A stretch of DNA of 64,000 nt from Eledone cirrhosa (taxonomy: Eukaryota), in assembly GCA_964016885.1 (NCBI GenBank), contig OZ024741.1, forward strand, positions 75,950,001 through 76,014,000, read 5' to 3'. Position numbers and translations under genes: made by a program. Under the pieces are notes generated by a model. That model ran no database searches. It was not told the DNA's origin and was given only the letters and a program-made list of their open reading frames with translations. Shown piece after piece: positions 1 to 62,455 of the stretch; positions within the stretch are counted from its first letter, which is position 1; each line of letters opens with the position of its first letter.

Positions 1-495
1 GCAGGTGAATGCAGAACAATTATATGAAAGACGTAAAATAAGAAAATTTTAAAAATTAAAAATCAACTTACTTACTAAAATTTTCACTCCAACTAATTAG
101 TTTCTGTAATGGGATAAATATAGTTACATAATATATATAACTATAGAGAATTCATTACGTCATCAGGGAGTCTATTCTCAGCTAAGTTCCCAGGCAATGC
201 GCGGACACTAGGAACCCATATAAAAATAATAATTCAGTAGATGGAAAGAAGCTAGCGTGGACTAAATTCCGGAGCACTGAAAAAATTTCACTGCCTCTGG
301 TCAGTGGCAGATTCTAAAGAAGCAATCACGTGACACCGAGGTTAATCAGTTAGGAGCGGGGTGGTATTATGACAAGAGCCTACTATACCATGAAACAGCA
401 GTAAATTTTGGCCAGTTTTGCTCAACAAATAATTTGGAGATAGATATAGAGAATTAGTACATCTACCAGCATATGTGTACAGATGTACATATATA
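1..495 (-). mobile_element. Diverged copy of the 523-bp hammerhead-containing non-coding repeat (retrozyme / Penelope pseudo-LTR-like), cut by the window edge
   Basis: Collinear similarity with the units at 13866-15430; no ORF; ends at a (TA)n tract. Confidence 0.75.
85..171 (-). ncRNA. Type I hammerhead ribozyme motif
   Basis: Minus strand: ACTCC-CTGATGA-CGTAATG...CATTACA-GAAA-CTAATTAG-TT-GGAGT; stem I ACTCC/GGAGT, palindromic stem III AACTAATTAGTT. Confidence 0.7.
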
Positions 496-3832: not shown

Positions 3833-3905
3833 GGCCCTGTGGCCTAATGGATATGGAGTCGGCCTCCGGAGCCAAAGATTGTGGGTTCAAGTCCCATCAG
3901 GGTCA
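3833..3905 (+). tRNA. tRNA-Arg(CCG)-like gene, probably a pseudogene
   Basis: 73 nt; acceptor GGCCCTG/CAGGGTC, anticodon loop CTCCGGA, T arm GTGGG-TTCAAGT-CCCAT; mismatches in the D stem and anticodon stem. Confidence 0.75.
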
Positions 3906-6913: not shown

Positions 6914-9600
6914 TCAAGGATCAATTTCCCCCTCGTCCTGCTGCATATGAAAGTCTGCTGTCCAGGTTGGTCGTTTGCGACTTCTTTGCGATCTCCGCAG
7001 TGTTGGGGTGGCACTTTGGGTTTCCTCTTCCCCGGAGTCCGTTGACACAGTAATTCTACGGACATGACGTGGTACTCCGTCCACGGACACATTGTTCTGG
7101 GAATTTACGGCCGTCACCGTTCCCCTTCCCCATTGAGATGTGCAACGTGCATCTGGGGGCTTAACCCAGACTTCTTCGCCCACCTGCACGAATGCATTCT
7201 CTCTCTCCACTGGCCGTTGTGGTGGCGTGCACAGGTGCTGCCACTCGTATCTGAATACTGCTCTGTGTGGCACCGATTCCTCAACCTGTCCCACCCGAGG
7301 AGACATGTTGTACCAGAACACTGCCTCCATTGGTGAGATGTGGTCCCACTCCGACATTGCTTTGATCGTCCGGTGGTGTCGCTCCACGATTCCATTTCCG
7401 CTCAGCCTGTACGCTGCTCTGAAGAAATGTTCTACCTTCCATCCATCGAGCATCTCCCTCAGCGTCTCCGAGCGGAACGCTGTGCTGTTGTCCATCAGCA
7501 GTTCGTTCACAGGGCCCCACTCCAAGAACACCTCTCTCAACGTCCGTGTGATTTCCTCGGCCGTTCCAGCCTTCATCTCCCTCCATATCGCCATCCGTCC
7601 CGGTCTACAGTCGACCATCGAGAGGCATGTTCCTTGTCAGTAGTGTGTTACATCCACCGCCAATCGCTTCCAGTCGCGATCCACCAGGAGGCTTCCAGTT
7701 TCGTGCACACCTGGGGTGGCATCAATGGACTGATATCGGACGCAGCCTCTAACCACTCTTTGAACACTGTGTCTGCTAACGTCCGAGTCGATTCTCCTGG
7801 CTAGGAACAGAGTCCTATCCACTCCCATGTGGTGCATGTCATGCAGCCCTTTCAGATCCGACTCGGTCAGCCGATACACGGCAGCTATCTTCTTTTCTAC
7901 ATCCTCCGCCCTATTTTTCTCTGAGGGCACGAAAACTACACTCAGCTTCAGGTCGAACTCGGTGGCCAGCTCTCCTAAAGTTCCCAGGCGGCACTTTATC
8001 TCCGCCGCCCCTCTCGTTCACACTCTCTTCTCACTGGTGAGCACTGATCTCACCATCCGAGTACAGTAGCCGAGTCGGTGCGAATTTCGATGGTGCGCAG
8101 TCCCCACCTCAGGGCGAGGTTCACCTCTCTCAACACCAGGTCCAGTTCGACCACATTGATGTGGTTGTAATTGTCCTTCTTTCTAAGCCAGGCTGCATCC
8201 CCAACCTCAACACCTCTTATCTCCAACGTGACACCTAGCGCTATGCTTCTGGCATCACACCATACGGTCCCGCTCTGCGATTTGGGAACATACCAGCGTC
8301 CCCGCACTGGGTCGTCGGCCTTCACCCTCTTCATGATCTCCTGCATCATGGTCACCGTCCTCTCTCCCACTCTGTCACTCCAAGTCACCCCGCCCGCTCG
8401 TCTCTTGACATAGCTGCATGCCATCTGGAGCCACCCAGCAATCAGGTAGTGACCCACCAACTTTCCACATGCCGAGAAAAGCTCCCGCCTACTCATACTT
8501 GGGCCCAGTTCTGGAACTTCATTTCCCCTCTGGAATACTAACACGCCCGTCCTGTCTCGCCGTAGCCTAAGTCCCAGCGAGGCTCCTCCCTCCAACGCTT
8601 CAGACGGCTTCGCAGCCAGTCCATACCCCTGTAAATGGCTTGTGACTTCCGCCGCCGACATTACAGACTCGTCCACTAGGATGTCGTCAATGTAGGAATT
8701 AGTGGCCCTCTTCATCTTGTCAGCCTTTCCCAGAATGGTCTTGAGGACCGCCGCCATGATCTTCGCCGCCATGATCTTCGTCAGGCAATATGTCCGGCCC
8801 TTATACCTGACCAGCTGATACTGCCAGAGCTTCTCATCTATGTGTAATTGTAAGTATGCCGACTTTAGATCGACGATTGCGGTGGCCCCCGTCATGCGTC
8901 ACCACTCACACAGGATTTCCCCACAGACATCCGTGACCTCGCCACCCGTGTGGCATGACACGTGCTTGTTCAGCTCCCGAAAGTCCAGTACCGGCCTCAC
9001 CTTGTTCTTCGTGGGTTGCGCCACCGCTCTTAATGGCAATACTCCACACTTCACCTCCTCTTTCCAGGGAAGCAGTATGCCCTTCTCAATCCATCTCTCT
9101 ACCTCTCGCTCCTAATGTCTCCCTTCAATGTGTGTTGATAGCAGCCCACTTTGATCTTCAGTGTTGGTGGTTCTCCCTTCCAGTACCACTCAACAACCCA
9201 TCGTTGCCCATCGAACACGGCCTTGAAGTCTTTGTACAGTGAAAGCGGGATATTTCTCCTGTCGCGTACTCACAGCGCATACCGATGCGGCGCCGCCTAA
9301 CGACACACCGACATTGTTCACTGTGACGCCTCCTAGACGGCCAATTGCGTCCATGCCCATAACTACGCCGATCCCATCCACCACGTTGTCGACTACGATG
9401 GTAGAAAGCTTTATTTTCTTTCCCCGTATCGCCATCTCCACCTCGCTGCGACCTCGGCATTCAATTTTCCTACCGCCGACTGCCCTTACCTCTCCACCTC
9501 TGCGCCACCCCCGCGGTCACCAGTGTAGTCGTACAGCCCGTGTCCACGAGGGCTCGCTGTGGTTTTCCCCTCACGAAGACTTTCACCACGGGCAGCGCCT
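6914..9600 (-). pseudogene. pol: Gypsy pol (protease, RT, RNase H, integrase), frameshifted
   Basis: ALVDTGCTTT protease (about 9520-9555), DLKSAYLQ and YIDDILV RT, WCDA RNase H, HDMHH..C zinc finger, DVTHY / DNSTAF / ERHHRT DDE integrase. Confidence 0.92.
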
Positions 9601-10347
9601 CTACTCGTAAGGGGCAGCTACCCTTGGATTGTTTCCCTGGTCGCAGCTAGTAGCGATGTGGCCTGGTCGCTTACACCGGTAGCATATTTTGTCCGGCCTA
9701 AACTCTCTACAGTCTCTCGCCATGTGCGGGCCCTGGCACCTAAAACAACAACCTCTAAACGTTCGCGGGCGACCGCGTGCCGTGGTTGCCTCTCTTTCAC
9801 CATTTTGCTGCCGGCTGCCTTGGGCCTCTGTTATTGCTATCGTCGCGACACTCTTCTTGGCATCTTCTGCTATGATGCGGGCTTGCTCCACCAGTACACG
9901 CATCTCCATTTCCTTGTAACCCGGGACTTGCTGCAGTTTCACCGCTATGTCGTCTGGAAATCCATTTATGAACGCCAACCGCACCGTGCATTCGCATTCC
10001 ACCTGATATCCAGCCAACATGGCCAATCTCCGTATTTCCGCTGCGAAAATGTCAACGCGTTCACCGTTCCATCTAATCCTTGCCAGCTTAGTAAAAGAGG
10101 CTAACGGTCCTTCCGCGAACGTTTCCATCATACGCCTCTCAATCTTTTGCGCATCCATTTGGCTGTGTTCATCCATCTCTAGGAAAAGTGCCAAAGCATC
10201 CCCTTCGAGGTACAGTGCCATGAGGCCAGCCACATCTATCTTCTGTAAGCTTGCGACCAGCCGGACTTTTTGCAACCAGGCGACAACATCGCCTTCACCA
10301 GTAAATGCTCTAATCACTTCTCCGCTCATTCGTAATCTCGTCGCCAT
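9601..10347 (-). CDS. gag: Gag polyprotein with two CCHC zinc knuckles, open ORF (248 aa)
   Basis: CFRCQGPHMARDC and CYRCKRPGHIATSC; starts about 120 bp after the 5' LTR. Confidence 0.88.
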   Translation of the reverse strand: MATRLRMSGEVIRAFTGEGDVVAWLQKVRLVASLQKIDVAGLMALYLEGDALALFLEMDEHSQMDAQKIERRMMETFAEGPLASFTKLARIRWNGERVDIFAAEIRRLAMLAGYQVECECTVRLAFINGFPDDIAVKLQQVPGYKEMEMRVLVEQARIIAEDAKKSVATIAITEAQGSRQQNGEREATTARGRPRTFRGCCFRCQGPHMARDCREFRPDKICYRCKRPGHIATSCDQGNNPRVAAPYE

Positions 10348-10464
10348 ATCCTAATGTTGTCCTGCCGTAAGTAATAAAAAACAACAGACTCCTCTCTGTT
10401 CTTCAGTAGCTTTGTTTTCGAGAAAGTTCTTTTTTTTTTATCGTCTTCCAGTGCCGAAATAGCT

Positions 10465-13539: not shown

Positions 13540-13807
13540 CCTCACACTGTAAAGTGGTCATGTAAGTGTCAATACAAAAAGCGCCCAGTCCACACTGTAA
13601 AGTGGTCATGTAGGCGACACAACAAAAAGTACCCAGTACTCACTGTAAATGAGGTTGGTGTTAGGAAGGGCATCCAGCTGTAGAAACCAAGCCAAACTCA
13701 GTTCTGCTTGAAAAAGATATGGTCACCTGACCTAGCATTGCTCACAATAGGACAACTCGTCTAACCCATGACAGTGTGGAAGAATAGATGTAAAACGGGG
13801 ATGATAA

Positions 13808-13810
<3 letters not shown>
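13540..13810 (+). mobile_element. RTE 3' UTR fragment
   Basis: CACACTGTAAAGTGGTC repeats, GGTGTTAGGAAGGGCATCCAGCTGTAGAAA, (GAT) tail. Confidence 0.75.
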
Positions 13811-13871
<61 letters not shown>

Positions 13872-13917
13872 GACGTAAATAAGAAAGTTATGAAAATTGA
13901 CTTACTTACTAAAATTT

Positions 13918-13997
13918 CACTCCAACTAATTAGTTTCTGTAAGGGGATAAATATAGTTACGTAATAACTATAGAGAAGCCTTACGTCATCAGGGAGT
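13918..13997 (-). ncRNA. Type I hammerhead ribozyme motif
   Basis: ACTCC-CTGATGA-CGTAAGG...CCTTACA-GAAA-CTAATTAG-TT-GGAGT. Confidence 0.75.
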
Positions 13998-14440
13998 ATA
14001 TTCTCAGCTAAGTTTCCAGGCAATGCGGGGACACGGGGAACTTATATAAAAATAATTCAGTGGATGGAAAAAAGCGAGCGGGGCTAGATTCCAAGCCATT
14101 GAGAAATTCACTGCCTTCTTGGTCAAGTGGCAAATTCAAATGAATCTATCACGTGACACTGAGGTTAACCAGCTTGGAGTGGGGGTGCTATCAAGACAGA
14201 GCCTAGCCACTACTATCAGTCACAGTAGTAATTTCGGCAAATTTTGCTCAACAAATAATTTGGAGATAATTATAAAGAATTAATATATCTACCGACATAT
14301 GTATACAGATGCATACCTATGCTAGCAGATATATATGTTTTGTCTTAGTAACTTTGTGGTTCTATGCAGGGGAATGCAGAACAATTATATGAAAGACGTA
14401 AATAAGAGAGTTATGAAAATTGACTTACTTACTAAAATTT

Positions 14441-14520
14441 CACTCCAACTAATTAGTTTCTGTAAGGGGATAAATATAGTTACGTAATAACTATAGAGAA
14501 GCCTTACGTCATCAGGGAGT
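14441..14520 (-). ncRNA. Type I hammerhead ribozyme motif
   Basis: Same motif one period downstream. Confidence 0.75.
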
Positions 14521-14662
14521 CTATTCTCAGCTAAGTTCCAAGAAGGCAGTGAATTTTTCAATGGCTTGGAATCTAGCCCCGCTCGCTTTTTTCCATCCAC
14601 TGAATTATTTTTATATAAGTTCCCAGGGTCCCCGCATTGCCTGGAAACTTAGCTGAGAATAG

Positions 14663-14742
14663 ACTCCCTAATGACGTAAGGCTTCTCTATAGTCATTACG
14701 TAACTATATTTATCCCCTTACAGAAACTAATTAGTTGGAGTG
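14663..14742 (+). ncRNA. Type I hammerhead motif with mutated core (CTAATGA), predicted inactive
   Basis: Same fold; G5-to-A change in the CUGAUGA core. Confidence 0.65.
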
Positions 14743-15185
14743 AAATTTTAGTAAGTAAGTCAATTTTCATAACTTTCTTATTTACGTCTTTCATATAATT
14801 GTTCTGCATTCCCCTGCATAGAACCACAAAGTTATTAAGACAAAACATATATATCTGCTAGCATAGGTATGCATCTGTATACATATGTCGGTAGATATAT
14901 TAATTCTTTATAATTATCTCCAAATTATTTGTTGAGCAAAATTTGCCGAAATTACTACTGTGACTGATAGTAGTGGCTAGGCTCTGTCTTGATAGCACCC
15001 CCACTCCAAGCTGGTTAACCTCAGTGTCACGTGATAGATTCTTTTGAATTTGCCACTTGACCAAGAAGGCAGTGAATTTTTCAATGGCTTGGAATCTAGC
15101 CCCGCTCGTTTTTTTCCATCCACTGAATTATTTTTATATAAGTTCCCAGTGTCCCCGCATTGCCTGGAAACTTAGCTGAGAATAT

Positions 15186-15265
15186 ACTCCCTGATGACGT
15201 AAGGCTTCTCTATAGTTATTACATAACTATATTTATCCCCTTACAGAAACTAATTAGTTGGAGTG
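15186..15265 (+). ncRNA. Type I hammerhead ribozyme motif
   Basis: ACTCC-CTGATGA-CGTAAGG...CCTTACA-GAAA-CTAATTAG-TT-GGAGT. Confidence 0.75.
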
Positions 15266-15426
15266 AAATTTTAGTAAGTAAGTCAATTTTCATAACTTGC
15301 TTATTTACGTCTTTCATATAATTGTTCTGCATTCCCCTGCATAGAACCACAAAGTTACTAAGACAAAACATATATATCTGCTAGCATAGGTATGCATCTG
15401 GATACATATGTCGCTAGATATATTAA

Positions 15427-15501
<75 letters not shown>

Positions 15502-15504
15502 ATT

Positions 15505-16900
15505 TCATCATCATTTCTGTTTAACGTCAATTGTTCCACGTTTGCATGGGTTAGATGGGTCGTCCACGTTGGGAGGCAAGTCTAGCCAGGATTGGTCATG
15601 TGTCGCATGTTGCTCTGGCAAGGACTGTAAATTTGGTTGGGTATTTTACAGCTGGATGCCCTTTTTATCACCAACCACGTTTACAGTGAGAAACTGGAAG
15701 GCACTGTTATGAGGGGGGGGGGGGGACAGGTCAGTTGGCCATGCCGAACCCGTTTCACAACAGAACCATGTTTTCGAAGCTCAATCCAACACACAGTGGA
15801 ACAATAGTTTTGGAGCCCGGTACTGCATGGCACCGATACAAGGACCTTAACCCATCTCACTGCACAGCCACAGTGTTGGGGCCTGGTACTAAGTGACACC
15901 TCTATGAGGAAGGACAGGTGTGGAACCACAGTTTGGGAGCCTGGCGTTGGATAGTACCACTATGCGAAGGAACCAGTGATACCACAATGAAAGGGACAGG
16001 CCAGTTGGCCACACCAAACCCTTATCACGGCAATGCCTCAGTTTTAGAGCCGGACACTCTCCACATGTCGGGCACTTCTCAATGCAAAACTGGACTCTGG
16101 CAGCCTGTGATTAGATGGCACTGCTATGAGGAGGGACAGGCTAGTTGGCTGTGTCAAACCCTTCACACAGCCGACCCTCAGTTCAAGTATTGGATGCGCG
16201 TGACTCCACTATGAGGAGAGACAGGCCAGTTGGCCACACCAAACCCATCTAACAGCAGAACCACAGTTTTGGAGCCCGGCACTGGTGACACCATGATGAG
16301 AAGGGACTGGCCAGTTGGCTGCACCGAACCCCTCTTATAGTGGCACACCAGTTTCGGACATGGCCCTCCCCATGCGACGGATACTTCTCAATACGAAACT
16401 GGAGAACCACAACATGTGACGCTACCACGTGACGAACCCTTCTCAGGACGAAATCCCCCTGGGGGGTGGGGGGGGTTCTGGCGTTGGATGGCACCATTAT
16501 GTGAAGAAGTCAGTTGGAGCCCAGTACTAGATGGCACCGATACCGATACCGATACTAGATGTGCCGAACCCACCACACAGCGTAACCACAGTTGAGGAGC
16601 CCGATACTCAATGACACCACTATGAGGAAGGATAGATGCAGGACCGGAGTATAGGAGCCTGACACACAGCAGGAACACACGATCTCACTTGACCTACCTT
16701 TCAGCATCCCTACGTTGATGGTTACCACTCTGAAGTCACGGGTGGGGCATACAGCTTTCCTGGTGGTGGGTGATATCTTTGTGCCAGTTATTTTTGCCCA
16801 GTTTGGCATTTGCATCATGACTGGTCAACGCTATTTGCATGTGTTAGTGGTTGTTAAATTAACAATATGGTTGTTTTTGTGGGGAGGGGGTTATTAAGAT
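15505..16900 (-). mobile_element. Internally deleted (bipartite) RTE derivative: 5' region + APE start + degenerate tandem repeats + RTE 3' tail
   Basis: FRVVTINVGMLKGRSSEIV at about 16680-16740 (compare LRAGTINVSTMKGRAGEIV at 33.8 kb); repeated GACAGGCCAGTTGGCCACACC..GGAGCCCGG units; RTE tail at 15505-15690. Confidence 0.65.
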
Positions 16901-23325: not shown

Positions 23326-24082
23326 ATTATGCTGATTGGGAGAGGAGATGGTGTATATATTTTATCAAATGATTCTATGGACATACTTTATTGTATATTG
23401 CTCTGATTGTTGATTATTTAATTAATTAATTCCTCATTGAGCCACATCGTGAATGGTCGCAAAAAACACATATATATATCTATCTATGACTTTGTCTAGT
23501 TTGTGTATATATAAATCTTGATAATCTCCCATATGGTTGAGATGCAATTTAGGCAGTATTTGGCTGCGCTTTCTAGAAACAAGCCCACTCGCCGCAAGGC
23601 ACCAATCACATTCTTTCTGACTTGACCACGTCACAGTTCTTAGCCATTTTGAATTCGTTTCTAGCGGGGATCATTTAAGAAAAATCTTCGTCCAAGTGAG
23701 TTTGTTTCCTGATGATTTCGAAACTCGTGAATTTATCCTTGATCGGATATTTCCAAAATGCGAATGAAACTCCATGGGGTAGAAACATAATTTTGGTATG
23801 CTTATATACATTTTTTCTTCTAACTTTGATTTTATACCTAATTGTGTATGGTTGACGATATATTTAATTGATTTCCACGTGCTATTAGAAATGGTGGGTA
23901 AATATTCTATAGTTGTTGATCGCGGATAGATAGCTGTCGCTTATTTATCTATTATTTCTTCATAGGTGCCTTTTAATCTTATAGCCTGGTTTAATTGTTT
24001 TTTTGTGTGGTTGATTATGCTGATTGGGAGAGGAGATGGTGTATATATTTTATCAAATGATTCTATGGACATACTTTATTGT
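23326..24082 (+). mobile_element. 688-bp non-coding unit with 69-bp terminal redundancy and a hammerhead motif (retrozyme-like 1.1-mer)
   Basis: 23326-23394 repeated at 24014-24082; TA-rich microsatellite flanks; no credible ORF. Confidence 0.78.
23703..23787 (+). ncRNA. Type I hammerhead ribozyme motif
   Basis: TGTTTC-CTGATGA-TTTCG...CGAAT-GAAA-CTCCATGGGG-TA-GAAACA; stem I TGTTTC/GAAACA, quasi-palindromic stem III, GUA cleavage triplet. Confidence 0.75.
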
Positions 24083-24630
24083 GTATATATATATATTACA
24101 TGTATATATGTGTGTATGTATATATATACATATTCACACACATATATATATGTGTGTAAATAAAAAATATATATAATGGCTACATCTCAGTTTCATGAAT
24201 TGCCATCCCTTGATCTTTTACTCATACATGGCTGGTGCAAACATAAACATCCAAGGACTTAGATTCCTTTCTGTATATACTGCAGTGAAAGAAAAAAGAA
24301 AAGATCATGCTCACACAATACATATGAAAGTCATTTGGGTTGTGATGCCTGTACTTGAAGCTTTTTTAATTGAAGAAAGGCCTTGCACAGCACCAATCCC
24401 ACTCTCAGAACAACAGTGACAGGTATCCAGACGAACAGGTCAACGTCTTTAGCTACCATTGAGTCACAAATTTTACATAAAAGTTTTCCTTTTAGAATGA
24501 TGTCCTGACAGACATGGACTAGAGGTATCTCACTCCCAGTGGCTAACTGTACGCTCAGGCACCAAAATGAGTACTTCCATGTCCCCATGCATATATATAT
24601 ATGTGTGTGTATATATGTATATGTATATAT

Positions 24631-24884: not shown

Positions 24885-25205
24885 AAAGTTATGTTGGTAC
24901 CACAACATCTAGTCCAAACTAATGAGGTCGTGTAGGTGTCATGACAAAAAAAAATACACAGTCCACGCTGTAATGTGGTCGTGTAAGTAACACAGTAAAA
25001 AGCTCCCAGTCCACACTGTAAATGTGGTTGGTGTTAGGAAGGGCATCCAGCCATAGAAAACCTGCCAGATAGTCCTATACGAGCGAGGCACGGTCACCCG
25101 ACCAATCTTGCCTCAAATGGGACAATTCCAATCTAACCCATGCTAGCGTGGAAGATAGACGTTAAACGATGATGATGATTATGATGATGATGATGATGAT
25201 GATGA
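24885..25205 (+). mobile_element. Short RTE-tailed retroposon, same family as 4432-4817
   Basis: Near-identical AAAGTTATGTTGGTACCACAACATC...(GAT)n. Confidence 0.8.
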
Positions 25206-25549
25206 TATCAAAAGTATATATTGAGTTAATACTTTTGATAAATTTGCTCCATCGCTTTTGTTGAGCTTTAATAAATCGAATGGTTCTGGCTGCTATTTTT
25301 CTAGTAACCTTACGTTCTATTTGTTCTGCCTGGCACATTATTTCCATGTGCTCTCTCTTTTAATTCACATGTGTTATTTAGTTTTCTACCAAACATAGTA
25401 GTGAACTGAATATTGATATGGGTACCCGTTGAGAAACACCACCCCAATAATTCTCCTCACTGAATTTTGCGAAACAGTTCTACCTATAAAATCTCCAGGT
25501 ACATGATAGTTATCATGGTAGGTTCGTTTTTCTCAATTTATCCTTTTCA

Positions 25550-26947
25550 TTGGGTTCTGTGAACCATACTATTAAAAACTCAGCAATGTCCAGTAGTGCT
25601 AAGTTTAATATTCTGATCGCAGATTTGGTACGAGTGATGAAGAATGTGTCCCGCATGTGCGACCCAACAGAAATGGAAAGACACATCCAACACTTCATCA
25701 ACCGCATGCGGTTCCCTGGCTACAACCAAAGAGACAGAGTTAGAGTATACGAAGGAGCTATGGGGAAGTATAAGACCCTCATAGAACTGGACATGAAAGG
25801 AATTTGCCCATTATACAGGAGCAAATCATGGAATAGCTTAGATAGGGCTAGACATAGATAGGGAAAGCCACCTCATGGTACGACAACCAGAGATACCAGA
25901 GTGTCATGTTTGTGGACGCTACCCCCGGAGGGAAATTAGCTAACCAGTGTAGAAAGGCCCTGAGAAAGACCCACTTAAAAATTAAGGTGGTAGAAAAGCC
26001 AGGAACCACCATAAAAGCCCTGATCAGCAAAACCTACCCTTTTAAGAAAACCCACTGTACCAATAGGAAGTGTATCATATGTGAGGTAAACCCCCGGATA
26101 AACTGTAAAACTAGAAACGTAGTCTATAGCATACGATGTACAGAGGGTACTTGCAGAAACATGACAACAACATACATAGGTGAGACAGCTCGTAGCATAG
26201 GTGAAAGGATAGACCAACACTGGGGGGAACTAAAAGGACGAAAAAACGGGTCAGTACTATACGAACATGCTAGACAACAACATGACGGTAACATAGACAA
26301 CATAGAAATTAGAATAATATCTAAACATAGAAATGACCCAGCAGATAGGCAAATCAGAGAGGCCAGTGAAATAGAAATTAGAAGGCCAAGACTAAACAGA
26401 AAGAATGAATGGAATAACAACAACGCCCAAACAAACAACACTGACCTAAGAGAAGTATAAATAAGTAAATAAAATAAAATAAATAAATAAATAAATAAAT
26501 AAATACATACACAAACACAATAACAACAAGCACATAAACACACACTAGTCACCCATCACACAACAAACAAAACACTACACACACGCAAACGCATGCGCAA
26601 AGAAGACAAAATAAAATAAACAAACAAGCAAATAAATAAATAAATATATAGACAGACTGAATAAAAATGGCGTAGACATACAATACAACAGGAGGAAACG
26701 ATAACACCACTGACGATGTTGCAGATGTGCAACGAAAGATTTATGATAAACTATATATATGTGTTTGTGTCTATATTGTATCTGTATTATTTTTGACTGT
26801 CGGTCAGTCAATGGCAACATTGAGGACCGAGTAAGTTAGATTGCCGATATAAAAGACACAGAAGCGAGAAGCGAAAACCAACCAAACAGTGAGTGTGTTC
26901 TGTTATTAATTCTGGCAATATTACACAAATATGACCCTCCCAAGTAT

Positions 26948-26950
<3 letters not shown>
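25550..26950 (+). mobile_element. Penelope-like element, 5'-truncated (RT thumb, Cys linker, GIY-YIG endonuclease, 3' UTR)
   Basis: CTNRKCIIC linker, NVVYSIRC..YIGETARSIGERI..H, RQIREA, LNRKNEW; frameshift near 25860; ends at (TA)n. Confidence 0.9.
26703..26767 (+). ncRNA. Degenerate hammerhead motif in the Penelope-like 3' UTR
   Basis: CTGACGA-T-GTTGCA-GATG-TGCAAC-GAAA, weak stem III; stem I interrupted by TA repeats. Confidence 0.5.
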
Positions 26951-27662: not shown

Positions 27663-28349
27663 GGCTAACTGGCCAGACTTGCTTCCTGAATGGGATCAGC
27701 TAGTCCAATGCTGTAAATAGGGTTGGTGTTAGGAAGGGCATCCAGCAACTGTAAAAGCCCAGCTAAAACACGGTACCACTATGAGCAAGGTACAGTGTGG
27801 CCAACTCGCCAGACCTCCCTCAAAACGAGATGACCCAACTCCCAAAATATGGTTCCACTATGAGCAGGGTACAGTGCGGCCAACTGACCAGACTCTCATA
27901 ACAGTAACACCCAGTTGCACACTGTAAACATGGTCGCTGTTAGGAAGGGTATCCGGCTGTAAAAAGCCTAGCCAAAATATATTTTCATTTGAGTAAGGTG
28001 TGGTGCAGCCAACTGGCCAGACTTGTTTCAAAACGTGGATGACGTGTCTAACCCATGCAAGCATGGAAAAAATATACGTTAAATGGTGATGATGATGATA
28101 GATAGATATTCGTATGTGGTTGACGGCTGAGAGAAAAGAGTGCTTAATACTGACGTAGAGAGTTTAAATATTAATTTTATTAATATATTAATAAAATGAA
28201 TATATATATATATATCGCACATCTCGGAAGTTGTTTTTCGTTATTTCGTGGGCCGAAATGTGAATCTCGATAATTTATGTTTGTTTATATATATATATAT
28301 ATATCGACCCACGTTGAGCAATAAAAAATCGATAGCAAAACTATTTTTT

Positions 28350-29050
28350 CTTTCGCCAAACCCAATTTCCCCTTCGTGTTGCCTTTGCGATGTCCATAAA
28401 CAAGTCGCAAGGTCAAACTCTGTCCGTCGCTGGAATTCACTTGGATGAACTTGCTTTTCGCACGGACAATTCTACGTTGCCTGCTCACGAGTTGGCAGTA
28501 GAGATAATCTCTTTGCGTTTGTTCCGAAAAGAAAAACAAAGATTATCGTCTATCCTGAAGTGGTTTAGTGTTAACAAAAACACTTATTACAGCTCTGCCT
28601 TGACTTCACTTTACTCATTACAAAACATACCAATGAATATGTCATGCAGGATATTTTGGATTATAAGTTCAAAATTTAACCATACACAGCAAAGGATGCT
28701 CTCAAAGAATACATTTTCTCTTATTCTACTCTCATTGTTTTTTTTGTTTGTATACAACTCTGCTTTCATTACAACTTTTTGTACTTTAGCAAAACTGCCT
28801 GTTTTTTTTACAGATTTGCAATGTGTATTGTCTTTAATCATTTGTATAACTACATCCTGTTCAGTGTTTTCCTTCATTATCAGCATAGTTTTATGTGTAC
28901 AAAGATTGCACTAAATATTCGTTTGCATTAATTATTGAAGACTTCTGCTTATTTTGACAGGTTGGGGACAAATAATTTTCTTCTTTTACTTCCTAGCTGT
29001 ATATTCTTAGCATAATTTCAAACCCCGAGCAACTCCGGGTAAATCGGCTC
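28350..29050 (+). mobile_element. Helitron 3' fragment (PIF1 helicase C-terminus + terminal hairpin)
   Basis: QFPLRVAFAMSINKSQGQTL..FSHGQFYVACSRV; CCCGAGCAACTCCGGG hairpin near 29025. Confidence 0.8.
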
Positions 29051-36249: not shown

Positions 36250-39200
36250 GTTCAGACTGTGGCCGCACCATAGCTATGTACAGCTTTAAATAGATAGCTG
36301 GAGAGTGGCTGACAAAGGTCTTGCTGAGTGATGCTAAGACACCCTCGGCCTTCTTGACAATTTTAGAGACGTGCTTCGTCCAACGCAAATCGCTGCTGAC
36401 CGTAATGCCCAGGTCACGTTCACAAGAAGACTTCTTGATATTAGTGTTGTGGAGGGAGTATGTGGACGCTGGGTTTTTACTCCCAAAATGCATGGTGGTG
36501 CACTTGTCCACAGCTAGCTTGAGTTTCCAGTCTGTGATCCATTGTTGCATTGTGTCCAGATCAGATTGCAGGCAAGATTTATAGTGTTCAAGATCTGTCC
36601 TTTTTATCTCAAGGTACAGCTTGATGTCATCTGCATATTTCAGTACTGTGGCATTCTTTAAGTTGGCATCTATGTCATTAATATATGCCACAAACAAGAG
36701 GGGGCCAAGAACAGATCCCTGTGGTACACCAGATGACATCTCATGCGGTGAGGAATGCTGTCCTAGAACCGTGACTACCTCTCTTCGACTGAGAATGAAG
36801 GACTTCAACCAGTTAAAAAGATCATCCTTCACACTCATTGCAGAGAGTTTTGCCATAAGTCTTTTGTGTGGCACAGAATTGAAAGCTTTAGCAAAGTCAA
36901 GGTAAACAACATCCACCCATGAGCCGCCATCAGTGATCTGGGTGATGTCTTCAAGAAACTCGATCAGTTGATCACAGCAGCTGGAGTTAGGGATAAATCC
37001 AAATTGCGAGGGCCGGATAAGACTGTGAGAGTTCCAGAAGTTCCAAAGCATTTCTCTGATACAGGATTCCATCAGTTTGGCAATGCAGCTAATAACACTG
37101 ACTGGATGATAGTTCACAGTGATGTGCGGTCACCCTTTTTGAACAGACGAATGACACTGGCAGTTTTCCACTGTTCTGGAGTAGCACCGTTGTTCAGACA
37201 GAATTGGAAGAAGCATGATAGCTGGTGCAGAAGGAAGTACCTACCACGTTTAAGAAGCAGGTACGTAACACCATCAAAACCAGGAGGGGCATGATTGCAT
37301 TTATTTTTGAGGTGACGTCGCAGCATTGCAGGTGTAAATTCCATAGTTGTAATAGAATCCGATGTCATAGGTGGTGGAGACGGTACATTCTGGTCTTCAA
37401 TAGTGAAAATGCCTGCATAGCATTCAGCAATGAGCTCTGCGCATTCCTTGGGGTCGTCAGTAACCTGGCTTGTGTGGGGATTGTGAAGAGAACAACTGGA
37501 GAGTGAGGCTTCTGCTTTGAGTGAACATACTTCCAGAACACCTTACTCTCAAGGCTGGTTGCTATGCGCTGCTCAAATTGAAGTACTGCCTTTTTTGTCA
37601 CCTGTTTGAGATGGTTGGATGATTTATTTCGCTTCTTCCTATTGATATCTGATTTGTGCAGTTTGTACTCACGTTCAGCATTACAACGTCTTTCCTGGCA
37701 AGACGGACTGCTGCAGTCTCCCAAATTGCACTTTTGGGATGTTTTTCTGCTTACGTGGCACCGATGCTGCACATGCTGTCCATATTGAGCTCAAGGTGTA
37801 CTGGGGTACAGTTTTGACATCTCCAGAGTCGTAGAACTCAATCCAGTTTGGCCGTTGCAACTCGGTGCAGTAACAGTTCCAGTCTGCTTTATTCCAGTCT
37901 AAGTGAGCAGTTTGGAGATGGTTGTGGCTCTTGTTACTGGCCTTGAGGGATAGATTGGCAATGATCATAGCATGATCAGAGGCTTCAGTAGTCACACTAA
38001 TAACCATTTCAGGAGTAGTGGTTTCAGGAGTGGTGGTTTCAGGAGTGGTGGTTTCAGGAGTAGTGGTTTCAGGGGTAGTGGTTTCAGGAGTAGCTGTTTC
38101 AGGGGTAGTGGTTTCAGGGGTAGTGGTTTCAGGGGTAGTGGTTTCAGGGGTAGTGGTTTCAGGGGTAGTGGTTTCAGGGGTAGTGGTTTCGGGGGTAGTG
38201 GTTTCAGGAGTAGTGGTTTCAGGGGTAGTGGTTTCAGGAGTAGTGGTTTCAGGAGTAGTGGTTTCAGGGGTAGTGGTTTCAGGAGTAGTGGTTTCAGGAG
38301 TAGTGGTTTCAGGAGTAGTGGTTTCAGGGGTAGTGGTTTCAGGAGTATTGGTTTCAGGAGTGGTGGTTTCAGGGGTAGTGGTTTCAGGAGTGGTGGTTTC
38401 AGGGGTAGTGGTTTCAGGAGTGGTGGTTTCAGGGGTAGTGGTTTCAGGGGTAGTGGTTTCAGGGGTAGTGGTTTCAGGAGTAGTGGTTTCAGGAGTAGTG
38501 GTTACAGGGGTAGTGGTTTCAGGAGTAGTGGTTTCAGGGGTAGTGGTTTCAGGGGTAGTGGTTTTAGGAGTAGTGGTTTCAGGGGTAGTGGTTTCAGGGG
38601 TAGTGGTTTTAGGAGTAGTGTTTTCAGGGGTAGTGGTTTCAGGAGTAGTGGTTTCAGGGGTAGTGGTTTAAGAAGTGGTGGTTTCAGGGGTACTGGTTTT
38701 AGGGGTAGTGGTTTCAGGGGTAGTTGTTTCAGGGGAAGTGGTTTCAGGGGTAGTGGTTTCAGGAGTAGTGGTTTCAGGGGTAGTGGTTTCAGGGGTAGTG
38801 GTTTCAGGAGTAGTGGTTTCAGAAGTAGTGGTTTCAGGGGTAGTGGTTTCAGGGGTAATGGTTTCAGGAGTGGTGGTTTCAGGAGTAGTGGTTTCAGGGG
38901 TAGTGGTTTCAGGGGTAGTGGTTTCAGGAGTGGTGGTTTCAGGGGTAGTGGTTTCAGGGGTAGTGGTTTCAGGGGTAGTGGTTTCAGGAGTAGTGGTTTC
39001 AGGGGTAGTGGTTTCAGGAGTGGTGGTTTCAGGGGTAGTGGTTTCAGGGGTAGTGGTTTCAGGGGTGGTGGTTTCAGGGGTAGTGGTTTCAGGGGTAGTG
39101 GTTTCAGGGGTAGTGGTTTCAGGGGTAGTGGTTTCAGGAGTATTGGTTTCAGGGGTAGTGGTTTCAGGAGTAGTGGTTTCAGGGGTAGTGGTTTCAGGAG

Positions 39201-42200
39201 TAGTGGTTTCAGGAGTAGTGGTTTCAGGGGTAGTGGTTTCAGGAGTGGTGGTTTCAGGGGTAGTGGTTTCAGGGGTAGTGGTTTCAGGGGTAGTGGTTTC
39301 AGGAGTAGTGGTTTCAGGGGTAGTGGTTTCAGGAGTGGTGGTTTCAGGGGTAGTGGTTTCAGGGGTAGTGGTTTCAGGGGTGGTGGTTTCAGGGGTAGTG
39401 GTTTCAGGGGTAGTGGTTTCAGGAGTAGTGGTTTCAGGAGTAGTGGTTTCAGGGGTAGTGGTTTCAGGAGTGGTGGTTTCAGGGGTAGTGGTTTCAGGGG
39501 TAGTGGTTTCAGGGGTGGTGGTTTCAGGGGTAGTGGTTTCAGGGGTAGTGGTTTCAGGGGTAGTGGTTTCAGGAGTAGTGGTTTCAGGGGTAGTGGTTTC
39601 AGGAGTAGTGGTTTCAGGAGTAGTGGTTTCAGGGGTAGTGGTTTCAGGAGTGGTGGTTTCAGGGGTAGTGGTTTCAGGAGTAGTTGTTTCAGGAGTAGTG
39701 GTTTCAGGAGTAGTGGTTTCAGGAGTAGTGGTTTCAGGGGTAGTGCTTTCAGGAGTGGTGGTTTCAGGGGTAGTGGTTTCAAGAGTAGTGGTTTCAGGAG
39801 TAGTGGTTTCAGGGTAGTGGTTTCAGGGGTAGTGGTTTCAGGAGTGGTGGTTTCAGGGGTAGTGGTTTCAGGAGTTGTGGTTTCAGGAGTAGTGGTTTCA
39901 GGGGTAGTGGTTTCAGGGGTAGTGGTTTCAGGAGTAGTGGTTTCAGGGGTAGTGGTTTCAGGAGTTGTGGTTTCAGGAGTAGTGGTTTCAGGGGTAGTGG
40001 TTTCAGGGGTAGTGGTTTCAGGAGTAGTGGTTTCAGGGGTAGTGGTTTCAGGAGTAGGGGTTTCAGGGGTAGTGGTTTCAGGGGTAGTGGTTTCAGGGGT
40101 AGTCGTTTCAGGGGTAGTGGTTTTAGGAGTAGTGGTTTCAGGGGTAGTGGTTTCAGGAGTAGTGGTTTCAGGGGTAGTGGTTTCAGGGGTAGTGGTTTCA
40201 GGGGTAGTGGTTTCAGGAGTAGTGGTTTCAGGGGTAGTGGTTTCAGGGGTAGTGGTTTCAGGGGTAGTGGTTTCAGGAGTAGTGGTTTCAGGAGTAGTAG
40301 TTTCAGGGGTAGTGGTTTCAGGGGTAGTGGTTTCAGGGGTAGTGGTTTCAGGAGTAGTGGTTTCAGGAGTAGTGGTTTCAGGGGTAGTGGTTTCAGGGGT
40401 AGTGGTTTCAGGGGTACTGGTTTCAGGGGTGGTGGTTTCAGGGGTAGTGGTTTCAGGGGTAGTGGTTTCAGGGGTAGTGGTTTCAGGAGTGGTGGTTTCA
40501 GGGGTAGTGGTTTCAGGAGTAGTGGTTTCAGGGGTAGTGGTTTCAGGGGTAGTGGTTTCAGGAGTGGTGGTTTCAGGGGTAGTGGTTTCAGGAGTAGTGG
40601 TTTCAGGAGTAGTGGTTTCAGGGGTAGTGCTTTCAGGAGTAGTGGTTTCAGGGGTAGTGATTTCAGGAGTAGTGGTTTCAGGAGTAGTGGTTTCAGGGGT
40701 AGTGGTTTCAGTGGTAGTGGTTTCAGGAGTGGTGGTTTCAGGGGTAGTGGTTTCAGGAGTAGTGGTTTCAGGAGTAGTGGTTTCAGGGGTGGTGGTTTCA
40801 GGGGTAGTGGTTTCAGGAGTAGTGGTTTCAGGTGTAGTGGTTTAAGGTGTAGTGGTTTCAGGGGTAGTGGTTTCAGGGGTGGTGGTTTCAGGGGTAGTGG
40901 TTTCAGGAGTAGTGGTTTCAGGAGTAGTGGTTTCAGGGGTAGTGGTTTCAGGAGTGGTGGTTTCAGGGGTAGTGGTTTCAGGGGTAGTGGTTTCAGGGGT
41001 GGTGGTTTCAGGGGTAGTGGTTTCAGGGGTAGTGGTTTCAGGGGTAGTGGTTTCAGGAGTAGTGGTTTCAGGGGTAGTGGTTTCAGGAGTAGTGGTTTCA
41101 GGAGTAGTGGTTTCAGGGGTAGTGGTTTCAGGAGTGGTGGTTTCAGGGGTAGTGGTTTCAGGAGTAGTTGTTTCAGGAGTAGTGGTTTCAGGAGTAGTGG
41201 TTTCAGGAGTAGTGGTTTCAGGGGTAGTGCTTTCAGGAGTGGTGGTTTCAGGGGTAGTGGTTTCAAGAGTAGTGGTTTCAGGAGTAGTGGTTTCAGGGTA
41301 GTGGTTTCAGGGGTAGTGGTTTCAGGAGTGGTGGTTTCAGGGGTAGTGGTTTCAGGAGTTGTGGTTTCAGGAGTAGTGGTTTCAGGGGTAGTGGTTTCAG
41401 GGGTAGTGGTTTCAGGAGTAGTGTTTTCAGGGGTAGTGGTTTCAGGAGTTGTGGTTTCAGGAGTAGTGGTTTCAGGGGTAGTGGTTTCAGGGGTAGTGGT
41501 TTCAGGAGTAGTGGTTTCAGGGGTAGTGGTTTCAGGAGTAGGGGTTTCAGGGGTAGTGGTTTCAGGGGTAGTGGTTTCAGGGGTAGTCGTTTCAGGGGTA
41601 GTGGTTTTAGGAGTAGTGGTTTCAGGGGTAGTGGTTTCAGGAGTAGTGGTTTCAGGGGTAGTGGTTTCAGGGGTAGTGGTTTCAGGGGTAGTGGTTTCAG
41701 GAGTAGTGGTTTCAGGGGTAGTGGTTTCAGGGGTAGTGGTTTCAGGGGTAGTGGTTTCAGGAGTAGTGGTTTCAGGAGTAGTAGTTTCAGGGGTAGTGGT
41801 TTCAGGGGTAGTGGTTTCAGGGGTAGTGGTTTCAGGAGTAGTGGTTTCAGGAGTAGTGGTTTCAGGGGTAGTGGTTTCAGGGGTAGTGGTTTCAGGGGTA
41901 CTGGTTTCAGGGGTGGTGGTTTCAGGGGTAGTGGTTTCAGGGGTAGTGGTTTCAGGGGTAGTGGTTTCAGGAGTGGTGGTTTCAGGGGTAGTGGTTTCAG
42001 GAGTAGTGGTTTCAGGGGTAGTGGTTTCAGGGGTAGTGGTTTCAGGAGTGGTGGTTTCAGGGGTAGTGGTTTCAGGAGTAGTGGTTTCAGGAGTAGTGGT
42101 TTCAGGGGTAGTGCTTTCAGGAGTAGTGGTTTCAGGGGTAGTGATTTCAGGAGTAGTGGTTTCAGGAGTAGTGGTTTCAGGGGTAGTGGTTTCAGTGGTA

Positions 42201-45200
42201 GTGGTTTCAGGAGTGGTGGTTTCAGGGGTAGTGGTTTCAGGAGTAGTGGTTTCAGGAGTAGTGGTTTCAGGGGTGGTGGTTTCAGGGGTAGTGGTTTCAG
42301 GAGTAGTGGTTTCAGGTGTAGTGGTTTAAGGTGTAGTGGTTTCAGGGGTAGTGGTTTCAGGGGTGGTGGTTTCAGGAGTAGTGGTTTCAGGAGTAGTGGT
42401 TTCAGGGGTGGTGGTTTCAGGGGTAGTGGTTTCAGGAGTAGTGGTTTCAGGTGTAGTGGTTTAAGGTGTAGTGGTTTCAGGGGTAGTGGTTTCAGGGGTG
42501 GTGGTTTCAGGAGCAGTGACTTCAGGGGTAGTGGTTTCAGGGGTAGTGGTTTCAGGAGTAGTGGTTTCAGGGGTAGTGGTTTCAGGAGTAGTGGTTTCAG
42601 GGGTAGTGGTTTCAGGGGTAGTGGTTTCAGGGGTAGTGGTTTCAGGAGTAGTGGTTTCAGGGGTAGTGGTTTCAGGGGTAGTGGTTTCAGGAGTAGTGGT
42701 TTCAGGAGTAGTGATTTCAGGAGTAGTGGTTTCAAGAGTAGTGGTTTCAGGAGTAGTGGTTTCAGGGGTAGTGGTTTCAGGTGTAGTGGTTTAAGGTGTA
42801 GTGGTTTCAGGGGTAGTGGTTTCAGGGGTGGTGGTTTCAGGGGTAGTGGTTTCAGGGGTAGTGGTTTCAGGGGTAGTGGTTTTAGGAGTAGTGGTTTCAG
42901 GGGTAGTGGTTTCAGGAGTAGTGGTTTCAGGGGTAGTGGTTTAAGAAGTGGTGGTTTCAGGGGTACTGGTTTTAGGGGTAGTGGTTTCAGGGGTAGTTGT
43001 TTCAGGGGAAGTGGTTTCAGGGGTAGTGGTTTCAGGAGTAGTGGTTTCAGGGGTAGTGGTTTCAGGGGTAGTGGTTTCAGGGGTAGTGGTTTCAGGGGTA
43101 GTGGTTTCAGGGGTAGTGGTTTCAGGGGTAGTGGTTTCAGGGGTGGTGGTTTCAGGGGTAGTGGTTTCAGGGGTAGTGGTTTCAGGGGTAGTGGTTTTAG
43201 GTGTAGTGGTTTCAGGGGTAGTGGTTTCAGGAGTAGTGGTTTTAGGGGTAGTGGTTTCAGGAGTGGTGGTTTCAGGGGTAGTGGTTTCAGGGGTAGTGGT
43301 TTCAGGGGTAGTGGTTTCAGGGGTAGTGGTTTCAGGAATGGTGGTTTCAGGGTTAGTGGTTTCAGGAGTAGTGGTTTCAGGAGTAGTGGTTTCAGGAGTA
43401 GTGGTTTCAGGGGTAGTGGTTTCAGGAGTAGTGGTTTCAGGAGTAGTGGTTTCAGGGATAGTGTTTTCAGGAGTAGTGGTTTCAGGAGTAGTGGTTTCAC
43501 GGGTAGTGGTTTCAGGGGTAGTGGTTTCAGGAGTAGTGGTTTCAGGGGTAGTGGTTTGAGGGGTAGTGGTTTCAGGGGTAGTGGTTTCAGGAGTGGTGGT
43601 TTCAGGAGTGGTGGTTTCAGGGGTAGTGGTTTCAGGGGTAGTGGTTTTAGGAGTAGTGGTTTCAGGGGTAGTGGTTTCAGGGGTAGTGGTTTCAGGAGTA
43701 TTGGTTTCAGGGGTAGTGGTTTCAGGAGTAGTGGTTTCAGGGGTAGTGGTTTCAGGGGTAGTGGTTTAAGGGGTAGTGGTTTCAGGAGTAGTGGTTTCAG
43801 GGGTAGTGGTTTCAGGGGTAGTGGTTTCAGGGGTAGTGGTTTCAGGAGTAGTGGTTTCAGGGGTAGTGGTTTCAGGAGTAGTGGTTTCAGGGGTAGTGGT
43901 TTCAGGGGTAGTGGTTTCAGGGGTAGTGGTTTCAGGGGTAGTGGTTTCAGGGGTAGTGGTTTCAGGGGTAGTGGTTTCAAGAGTAGTGGTTTCAGGGGTA
44001 GTGGTTTCAGGAGTAGTGGTTTCAGGGGTAGTGGTTTCAGGAGTAGTGGTTTCAGGGGTAGTGGTTTCAGGAGTAGTGGTTTCATGGGTAGTGGTTTCAG
44101 GGGTAGTGGTTTCAGGGGTAGTGGTTTCAGGGGTAGTGGTTTAAGGTGTAGTGGTTTCAGGGGTAGTGGTTTCAGGGGTGGTGGTTTCAGGGGTAGTGGT
44201 TTCAGGGGTAGTGGTTTCAGGGGTAGTGGTTTTAGGAGTAGTGTTTTCAGGGGTAGTGGTTTCAGGAGTAGTGGTTTCAGGGGTAGTGGTTTAAGAAGTG
44301 GTGGTTTCAGGGGTACTGGTTTTAGGGGTAGTGGTTTCAGGGGTAGTTGTTTCAGGGGAAGTGGTTTCAGGGGTAGTGGTTTCAGGAGTAGTGGTTTCAG
44401 GGGTAGTGGTTTCAGGGGTAGTGGTTTCAGGAGTAGTGGTTTCAGAAGTAGTGGTTTCAGGGGTAGTGGTTTCAGGGGTAATGGTTTCAGGAGTGGTGGT
44501 TTCAGGAGTAGTGGTTTCATGGGTAGTGGTTTCAGGGGTAGTGGTTTCAGGAGTATTGGTTTCAGGGGTAGTGGTTTCAGGAGTAGTGGTTTCAGGGGTA
44601 GTGGTTTCAGGGGTAGTGGTTTCAGGAGTATTGGTTTCAGCGGTAGTGGTTTCAGGAGTAGTGGTTTCAGGGGTAGTGGTTTCAGGAGTAGTGGTTTCAG
44701 GAGTAGTGGTTTCAGAGGTAGTGGTTTCAGGGGTAGTGGTTTCAGGGGTAGTGGTTTCAGGGGTAGTGGTTTTAGGGGTAGAGGTTTCAGGAGTAGTGGT
44801 TTCAGGAGTAGTGGTTTCGGGGTAGTGGTTTCAGGAGTAGTGGTTTTAGGAGTAATGGTTTCAGGGGTAGTGGTTTCAGGGGTAGTGGTTTCAGGGGTAA
44901 TGGTTTCAGGAGTAGTGGTTTCAGGGGTAGTGGTTTTAGGGGTAGTGGTTTCAGGAGTGGTGGTTTCAGGGGTAGTGGTTTCAGGGGTAGTGGTTTCAGG
45001 AGTAGTGGTTTCAGGGGTAGTGGTTTCAGGAGTAGTGGTTTCAGGAGTAGTGGTTTCAGGGGTAGTGGTTTCAGGGGTAGTGGTTTCAGGAGTAGTGGTT
45101 TCAGAAGTAGTGGTTTCAGGGGTAGTGGTTTCAGGGGTAATGGTTTCAGGAGTGGTGGTTTCAGGAGTGGTGGTTTCAGGAGTAGTGGTTTCAGGGGTAG

Positions 45201-54100: not shown

Positions 54101-55181
54101 TTGCACCAATGGAATAAAGTACAGAAATTCTCTTTCAATACTAACATGCGAGCTTTATTATATGGGGACCAATGAGCAGAACAGTTTTCAACCCAGCTCC
54201 TCCAATTAGGAAATGGGAAAGTACCAATTGATAGGAATGGTGATAACAATTTGGCTCATATTGCTATCATGGTGAATTCCCCAGCTGAATTGAAGAATAG
54301 GGTATTTCAAGACTTAAGTTATAATTATAATTCACATAAATGGTTGTGTGTAAGGACAATTCTTGCTCCCAAAAATGAGACAGTAGCAAGGATTAACCAT
54401 GAATTAATGAATAAGATTCCAACAGTCATTAAGGAGTACAAATCAGTTGATTCAGTCCTTGATGAAAATCAAGCTGTCTGCTACCCAACAGAGTTCCTTA
54501 ATTCTCTTGAGCCATCTGGAATTCCTCCACATAAACTTTTTCTGAAGGTAGGAGTCCCAATAATGCTTCTAAGAAATTTAGATTCTTCTAAATCATGCAA
54601 TGGGTCAAGGTTGATTGTGAAAACATTATTACCTAATATGATAGAAGCTACCATCATCACTGGATGTGCTTCTGGGGAAGACGTTTTCATTCCAAGAATT
54701 CCAATCAAACCAATAGACATGCCATTTGAGTTCAAACGAACACAATTCCCAGTGCGGCTTTACTTTGCAATGTCTATTAATAAAGCTCAAGGTCAGACTT
54801 TGAAATCTACTAGCTTGCACTTAATTGAGCCTTGCTTTTCTCATGGTCAACTTTATGTTGGTTGCTCTAGGGTTATTTGTCTATGCTCTAAACCAGAAAA
54901 CAAAGAATGTTGTTTTCCCAGAAGCTCTTACGTAATTTCCTTCAACATATGTCATAGAATTTATCTCCCTTCATAAAAGTGGTAAATTTTGTATTTTCGT
55001 TTTTCATCATTATTATTATTTTTTTTTTGTATTATGAATTCAGAATTGATTTTATCATGTATCCCAATTGAAGAATAAATTGAATTTAGAATAACAAATT
55101 TCTATACAACATATTTTGCTTTTTTCTTCTAATATATAAGGAACGATTTCATTCCCAGGCAATGTCGGGTGCCTCTGCTAG
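51114..55181 (+). mobile_element. Helitron derived from an autonomous element; RepHel pseudogene with internal deletions
   Basis: MCCGGG, IRNYNSAF, FKVQGQLYH, RGLLHAHILIW (HUH), KYVCKYINK, GTGKIF, VASSGIAA, IIWDECTM, GDFRPILPV, FAMSINKAQGQT, FSHGQLYV; 3' CCCAGGCAATGTCGGG hairpin and CTAG|T; 5' boundary approximate. Confidence 0.93.

Positions 55182-62405: not shown

Positions 62406-62455
<50 letters not shown>

Follow-up and report, generated by a model that had tools for sequence, protein, structure and literature searches.

A hammerhead repeat inserted into (TA)n with the anatomy of a Penelope-like element, likely a non-autonomous animal retrozyme

Our results indicate the presence, in a 64,000-nt stretch of DNA (the window), of an inserted 523-bp repeat that has no open reading frame (ORF) and carries one hammerhead ribozyme motif per unit. 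The insertion is likely (probability about 0.8) that of a non-autonomous animal non-LTR retrozyme mobilised by a Penelope-like element (PLE), for which monomers and circles are predicted. This explanation starts from what the DNA itself displays, namely the unit, its motifs and their conservation, a multi-copy family, tandem joints and ends in (TA)n. The ORF-less unit likely belongs to an already described class, and both that class and its PLE origin are published, so that the gain is a good test case and not a new system. PLE mobilisation of animal retrozymes has been argued so far from co-occurrence and from homology to pseudo-LTRs (pLTRs), and a 2026 preprint leaves the mechanism open; a retrozyme-type unit with the full set of PLE insertion marks gives anatomical support of another kind.

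The locus is made of two arms that meet head to head, with a repeat period of exactly 523 bp (unit positions are given as u, u1 being 14538). The right arm (14538-15435, plus strand) is a partial tandem of 898 bp, or 1.72 units, running through u1-523 and u1-375. The left arm (13863-14537, minus strand) is an inverted, 5'-truncated copy of about 680 bp, or 1.3 units, with u109-523, u1-260 and two intact hammerhead cores. The 5' ends of both arms meet at an inversion junction (14538-14542) with a microhomology of 3-5 nt, and the resulting inverted repeat of 680 bp is 98% complementary. Outside it lies a one-sided tail of 115 bp (15321-15435, plus strand, u261-375). The 3' ends of both arms run into (TA)n, the left one overlapping its target tract (13810-13867) by ATATA and the right one entering the repeat tract at 15428-15501; they correspond to u260 and u375, at distances of 61 and 176 nt beyond the cut site. 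The outer ends, like the junction, are of the insertion type. No target-site duplication is readable at the locus, where both ends merge into (TA)n, and the layout does not have an LTR-internal-LTR form. The unit has a GC content of 0.36-0.37, and the longest ATG ORF of its cyclic form is 31 aa in the sense and 50 aa in the antisense direction. An AU-rich hairpin (14849-14900, plus strand, z −4.7), with further copies at 14283-14334 and 15372-15423, lies just inside a 3' end, u370-375, that recurs in other copies. The mapping of the arms and the 523-bp period bear out the first-pass annotation, which had described about 1.3 minus-strand units joined to about 1.7 plus-strand units, and the absence of an ORF and the (TA)n flanks on both sides that it reported were likewise found. 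The outer flanks (13750-13813 and 15502-15565) belong to a common repeat, present there in inverted copies (75-84%), that ends in (ATG)n and faces the (TA)n target; they are not part of the element, because identical ends recur at numerous further sites of the window. Next to the right flank, at 15700-16660, lie diverged tandem repeats of about 80-85 bp.

The type I hammerhead that had been annotated in each unit is present in four motifs, with cores at 13992 and 14515 on the minus strand and at 14668 and 15191 on the plus strand. All four contain the stem III palindrome ACUAAUUAGU, essentially loopless as first described, and a GUU triplet. Hammerheads L2 (13918-13998) and L1 (14442-14520) on the minus strand, and R2 (15185-15265) on the plus strand, have the core CUGAUGA, with predicted cuts after 13924, 14447 and 15259, respectively. 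In R1 (14663-14741, plus strand, cut-site position after 14736), the core is decayed to CUAAUGA (G5A), a change that kills hammerhead activity. Given that 1198 of 1225 reads of the public DNA run X13 carry G at the mutated position of the core at 14668, CUAAUGA is a private decay of one copy, which leaves the left arm as the only possible source of a monomer. The sole predicted cut-to-cut monomer at the locus between two intact cores has 523 nt (13924-14446, minus strand). The proposal that two tandem ribozymes would release a 523-nt monomer holds, as a prediction, for the left arm with its two intact cores, but not for the right arm, which carries G5A. The core CUGANGA...GAAA...UH with stems I-III, stem I being open, is found in three of the four locus copies and in a second, far copy of the family.

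The hammerhead motif is beyond chance. A search for it, as suggested with the first annotation, had a divided outcome: a strict descriptor, which matched only one of 5000 dinucleotide-shuffled units and gave 5 matches over 200 shuffles of 55 kb (0.025 per shuffle), retrieves it, whereas Rfam yielded no hammerhead match at the gathering score nor at E≤10. A long stem II insert and the loopless stem III are a likely cause of the Rfam miss. Rfam matches to miRNAs were rejected as chance matches of TA repeats or hairpins, far below the gathering score, and a sigma-70 scan was empty and is irrelevant here. Stem II carries an insert of 36 nt. At its foot, what had been taken for a C-A pair is better read as an extra nucleotide (C) after A9, followed by G10.1-C11.1, with one extra A before G12. 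An extra nucleotide after A9 and then G10.1-C11.1 is the consensus reported for PLE hammerheads, among which the GUU triplet is also common (PMC4209133). The two features that had been flagged as possibly lowering activity are therefore found in known families, as seen from the PLE consensus and from Hydra-clade and axolotl hammerheads; the GUU triplet stands as described and the C-A pair is better read otherwise. Literature searches found nothing on 10.1/11.1 mismatches in hammerheads and nothing of use on GUU triplets. A putative GTAAGT...CATAG intron downstream of the cut was dropped, as the extended stem I explains the conserved bases.

The second of the two family loci within the 64-kb window lies at 1-485 (minus strand), where the window edge cuts it. 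It is about 82% identical, runs unbroken through u335-523-u1-280 without an ORF, adjoins (TA)n at about 499-517, and has an intact hammerhead (core at 166) together with the pairing segment, or lock, that is described below. Between this far copy and the unit, 60 of 61 positions agree within the core, stem III and extended stem I, whereas outside the ribozyme 284 of 357 do (Fisher p=8e-5, with regions chosen by structure and only two independent copies aligned in full). In stem II the far copy has one two-sided change, from G-C to U-A. The ribozyme is thus conserved in the manner of purifying selection, with one compensatory pair. Loose ends of diverged subfamilies keep CUGANGA-C-G, and their stem II varies.

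Comparison of the unit with four of 15 listed public DNA runs (the seven small-share runs X6-X12 were left out) indicates a large family, with matches in 1700 contigs of run X1 and in 5174 of the 12.47 million reads of run X13, mostly less than 95% alike; summed contig depth was not taken as copy number. Since only 49 of the 5174 matching X13 reads are 99% alike, the family is old and diverse. Organism A of these runs may differ in strain or species from the source of the window, and run X4 (organism B) contributes a single contig, in which 169 bases match. Reads that span the u523-to-u1 tandem joint number 22, with 11 starts, and contigs of two runs contain it as well; two consecutive units with complete hammerheads, 523 nt apart, are present in the left arm (L1 and L2). 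The claim of a retrozyme-type unit is thus supported by its tandem, ORF-less and multi-copy nature and by the hammerhead in each unit. The variants discussed here come from the 40 rows listed out of 158, and the loose ends from the 20 listed out of 276, so that absence among them carries no weight. No RNA run was among the matches listed in the search of sequencing runs with the unit, and a 22-nt hammerhead pattern had no match in metagenome and viral contigs. Piles of X13 read ends at 14732, 14797, 14905 and 15050 fall on AATT words and were discounted as products of the restriction digest of a RAD library; those at 14950 and 15075 are not accounted for in this way. The 523-bp family was not found in literature on octopus hammerheads and PLEs, retrozyme pLTRs and non-autonomous Penelope elements, and it may be catalogued in Repbase or Dfam.

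PLE insertions are recognised by partial tandems, an inverted 5'-truncated copy, a one-sided tail and a bias for (TA)n (PMC8557442). The locus has the partial tandem with an inverted 5'-truncated copy, the one-sided tail and the (TA)n target, and on this anatomy the PLE link that had been suggested gains support; the tail, of 115 bp against the usual 30-40, counts against it. The (TA)n target is found at both flanks of the locus, at the far copy and at loose ends. Among the loose ends listed, (TA)n lies behind 14912 in at least six contigs and behind 14907 in at least one, and the ends recur in other copies at u370-375 (at least seven contigs) and u257 (at least one). Moreover, 14794 and 14909, the same two end positions as at the locus, are linked on opposite strands in one contig; the recurrence of the u260 end comes from this single contig. 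Two more opposite-strand joints occur at other positions, with three reads each. As the locus's own inversion junction is absent among the joints listed in the compared runs, the locus itself is without independent confirmation.

The purified enzyme of the PLE Poseidon nicks both strands of AT-rich DNA, and two internal RNA sites at which reverse transcription starts bound the tail (PMC11167929). A borrowed Penelope-like RT/GIY-YIG enzyme would copy the present element into a (TA)n tract, probably by nicking both of its strands and priming cDNA at two internal RNA sites, u260 and u375. The two cDNAs would stop early and join by microhomology, leaving inverted arms and a one-sided tail; alternatively, one cDNA might snap back and copy itself. 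By prediction, double hammerheads would divide tandem transcripts into monomers, which would then circularise, and a segment half a unit away is predicted to pair with both cut ends of the monomer and then to stop the circle from cutting itself again.

That the palindromic stem III favours a dimeric hammerhead, as was suggested at first, agrees with the energies predicted for isolated domains (−48.2 kcal/mol for the double-hammerhead fold against −36.2 for two monomer folds). For the whole left-arm RNA, the double hammerhead is predicted at −162.6, two monomer folds at −159.0 and the free fold at −167.7 kcal/mol. The double hammerhead is 3.6 kcal/mol better than two monomer folds, and the two lie 5.1 and 8.7 kcal/mol above the free fold, respectively, so that in this model the active hammerhead folds are not the lowest in energy. 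The fold of the circular monomer has z values of −5.2 and −6.1 (0 of 40 shuffles each). In vitro, one of nine predicted Xenopus retrozyme dimers cut and eight did not (bioRxiv 10.64898/2026.07.22.740005).

The pairing segment mentioned above lies at 15001-15018 (plus strand, u464-481), with a left-arm copy at 14165-14182 on the minus strand, as derived from the arm register. It is complementary to the 3' half of stem III, the cut site and the 3' strand of stem I. With its first base at position 266 of the 523-nt circle, it lies opposite the cut site. Its pairing is the strongest long-range helix of the circle among 16-mers sampled every 4 nt. The predicted duplex energy is −17.4 kcal/mol in this unit and −17.5 kcal/mol in the far copy, and 4 and 3 of 2000 shuffles, respectively, did as well; the target of this test was picked once the fold was known, and the two copies are relatives of each other. 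In the far copy the pairing persists by way of G-U-tolerant changes and a bulge that has shifted. Among the variants listed for X13, those within the lock affect 15008-15010, which face the cut, and 15014, at which a change of G to A, carried by 767 of 817 reads, still pairs with U. In the predicted circle the lock pairs with a probability of 0.95-1.0 and the native stem I with about 0, and in the linear cut-to-cut monomer both ends are predicted to pair side by side on the lock. After a first cut, the second stem I would form with P=0.05 at equilibrium owing to the lock, and therefore cutting would depend on folding kinetics or on protein help.

The lock segment is thus predicted to lock the circle and to align the cut ends. 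A bolder proposal, which we regard as tentative and on balance rather unlikely, is that of a retrozyme with its own circularisation device, in which a conserved antisense would splint the ends and then silence the ribozyme, and whose insertions would record two fixed RT starts of the PLE type. If true, the family would be a direct test of whether a circle or an uncut multimer is the template of transposition. The splint idea is weakened by eggplant latent viroid (ELVd), in which changing the opposite strand did not lower ligation (PMC5895719). Nevertheless, the predicted lock would be a simple answer to how a hammerhead circle escapes self-cutting, and it is checkable by mutation and rescue.

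The main alternative bears on mechanism and leaves the class assignment untouched. The same non-autonomous PLE could transpose without any role for the circle, the template being uncut read-through RNA of a tandem source locus, whose hammerhead would cut rarely or only with the help of proteins; we consider this quite possible, if somewhat less probable than its converse. In both arms, u125 is G in unit 1 (L1 and R1) and T in unit 2 (L2 and R2), a pattern that is left unexplained by two separate primings on a monomer circle, and which hints at a non-identical dimer as template. It is the only one in register of six variable sites in the 152 bp common to all four units, the other five being private. 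Comparison of whole arms points in the same direction, with 10 differences in 675 bp in register and 26 in 1054 between out-of-register pairs (overlapping comparisons). The main substrate of the PLE enzyme PAc is unprocessed RNA, uncut RNA is inserted in vitro and the PAc hammerhead is dispensable for that insertion (PMC11167929), and the lock, as modelled, would disfavour the active fold in linear multimers. On the other hand, u125 is a single site, and an RT error with snap-back copying, or gene conversion between the arms, would give an equal pattern; besides, the conservation of both the ribozyme and the lock opposite it is easier to explain if a cut, closed monomer exists. Unit-by-unit variants in young insertions can separate a circular from a linear template.

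Two other explanations dispute the nature of the element itself. The arms might be only pLTR debris of an autonomous Penelope-like element, locally amplified as a DNA tandem, which we find improbable. Retrozymes are indeed close to pLTRs (24 of 57 Xenopus families; bioRxiv 10.64898/2026.07.22.740005), and the hammerhead architecture resembles that of Hydra-clade PLEs. However, both arms and the 82% copy (u335-523-u1-280) complete the 523-bp cycle with no ORF in it, contigs bridge u166-334 and u244-370, and the outer ends and the junction, being of the insertion type, speak against debris. None of the 20 listed loose ends resembles coding sequence by eye, although an ORF-linked minority is possible, since these are 20 of 276. 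All the copies seen lack an ORF with RT plus GIY-YIG between the repeats, and the notion that the unit is always the pLTR of a full-length Penelope, raised against the annotation by its own author, fails for them, as the unit closes without an ORF. Far less probable still, and largely refuted, is an element or accident at the DNA level, such as a foldback or MITE-like transposon in TA with long terminal inverted repeats, an inversion by break repair or an assembly chimera. It would account for a 680-bp inverted repeat, 98% complementary with TA at both sides, and for a locus junction that is not among the joints listed in the compared runs. Yet the two ends fall at different unit positions (u260 and u375) and each arm is a partial tandem; the far copy lacks an inverted arm where it adjoins (TA)n, and opposite-strand joints of other copies occur at three different places. 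The arms are not one read folded back, given their 10 differences in 675 bp, and the conserved features are RNA structures. A non-autonomous, PLE-mobilised retrozyme thus remains the preferred reading.

Such a retrozyme resembles those of animals in its non-coding tandem unit with one type I hammerhead each, a GC content of 36-37%, many copies, a well-paired predicted circle and a weak palindromic stem III that favours dimers (PMC7229834; bioRxiv 10.64898/2026.07.22.740005). As in axolotl HHR_Amex2, the foot of stem II has a mismatch or additional bases, and an axolotl ribozyme with such a mismatch does cut. At 523 bp the unit is longer than the tested animal retrozymes (150-450 bp) and within the 51-972 bp of the 2026 survey; the 36-nt insert in stem II is a further difference, and so is the predicted blocking of the hammerhead in the circle, which among animals is reported as an exception, for some mussel circles (PMC7229834). 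The main texts of PMC7229834 and bioRxiv 10.64898/2026.07.22.740005 say nothing about retrozymes in inverted copies or at (TA)n targets, and the latter treats animal non-LTR retrozymes as non-autonomous derivatives of PLEs. With insertions of endonuclease-bearing PLEs the locus shares the partial tandem, the inverted 5'-truncated copy at the 5' end, the one-sided tail, (TA)n and a hammerhead shortly upstream of the 3' ends, and non-autonomous head-to-tail PLEs have been described from Chlamys (MRC1); it departs from PLEs in the absence of an ORF and in a tail of 115 bp where they have 30-40 (PMC8557442; PMC11167929). Unlike PAc, which starts without homology, both ends here overlap the target by short TA-rich microhomology (PMC11167929). 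Hydra-clade PLE hammerheads have extra bases on both sides of stem II and a stem III palindrome of 3-5 bp with a loop of 0-3 nt and GUU or GUA (PMC8557442 File S2; PMC4209133 Fig. S3), and this clade also prefers (TA)n (PMC8557442). The likeness is architectural only: the stem III word of the unit is absent from the supplement of PMC8557442, and the Hydra-1_Obim motif differs in sequence. In plant LTR retrozymes and hammerhead viroids, too, a complementary strand typically blocks the ribozyme in the circle, and plant retrozymes differ in having type III hammerheads, LTRs, PBS and PPT (PMC7229834). In ELVd the ligation site likewise faces the opposite strand (PMC5895719).

An autonomous partner for the unit was not found in the window. 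Two PLE families there had been put forward as possible mobilisers, but their remnants have no sequence in common with the unit and both 3' ends score at shuffle level against it, so that neither is shown to be the mobiliser. One remnant (60798-61880) contains RT plus GIY-YIG and is part of a 5'-truncated PLE between (TA)n tracts (60798-62408, plus strand) with a minimal hammerhead-like core, CCGAAGA, at 62256. The other (25600-26950, plus strand) has a CX4CxxC linker, a GIY-YIG-like domain at 25858-26460 and a minimal hammerhead-like core at 26710, ends in (TA)n and appears Neptune-like by motif. The hammerheads of both are minimal and differ in sequence from that of the unit. The six frames of the window gave no protein motif of the Hydra type. 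Upstream of the Neptune-like remnant, non-coding DNA at 25206-25620 has short words common to the unit; the region 25200-25620 was rejected as a relative, its similarity being insignificant against shuffles. A second ORF-less partial tandem, with a period of 688 bp, lies between TA-rich tracts at 23326-24086 (plus strand). Its unit contains a type I hammerhead at 23709 with U/U at the foot of stem II, a palindromic stem III and GUA, and its circular fold has −158.7 against −145.3 ± 4.8 for 20 shuffles. Its similarity to the 523-bp unit is weak and depends on scoring, beating shuffles in two of four schemes (0 of 300), and to the far copy it is weak or none (14 to 290 of 300 shuffles).

The window holds other repeats, and its repeat content points to an animal host, possibly an octopus. 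An 8.7-kb satellite with 584 copies of a 15-bp unit (38007-46764) interrupts LINE-like sequence and has long open frames on both strands, including one of TTPET repeats. Broken frames of LTR-retrotransposon type, in which a gag zinc knuckle, RT and integrase were recognised by eye, lie at 6914-10350 (minus strand), and a tRNA-like sequence at 3833-3905 (plus strand; Rfam 51 bits) is possibly the head of a SINE. Frames at 28336-28914 and 53362-54976 resemble, by eye, fragments of a Helitron helicase.
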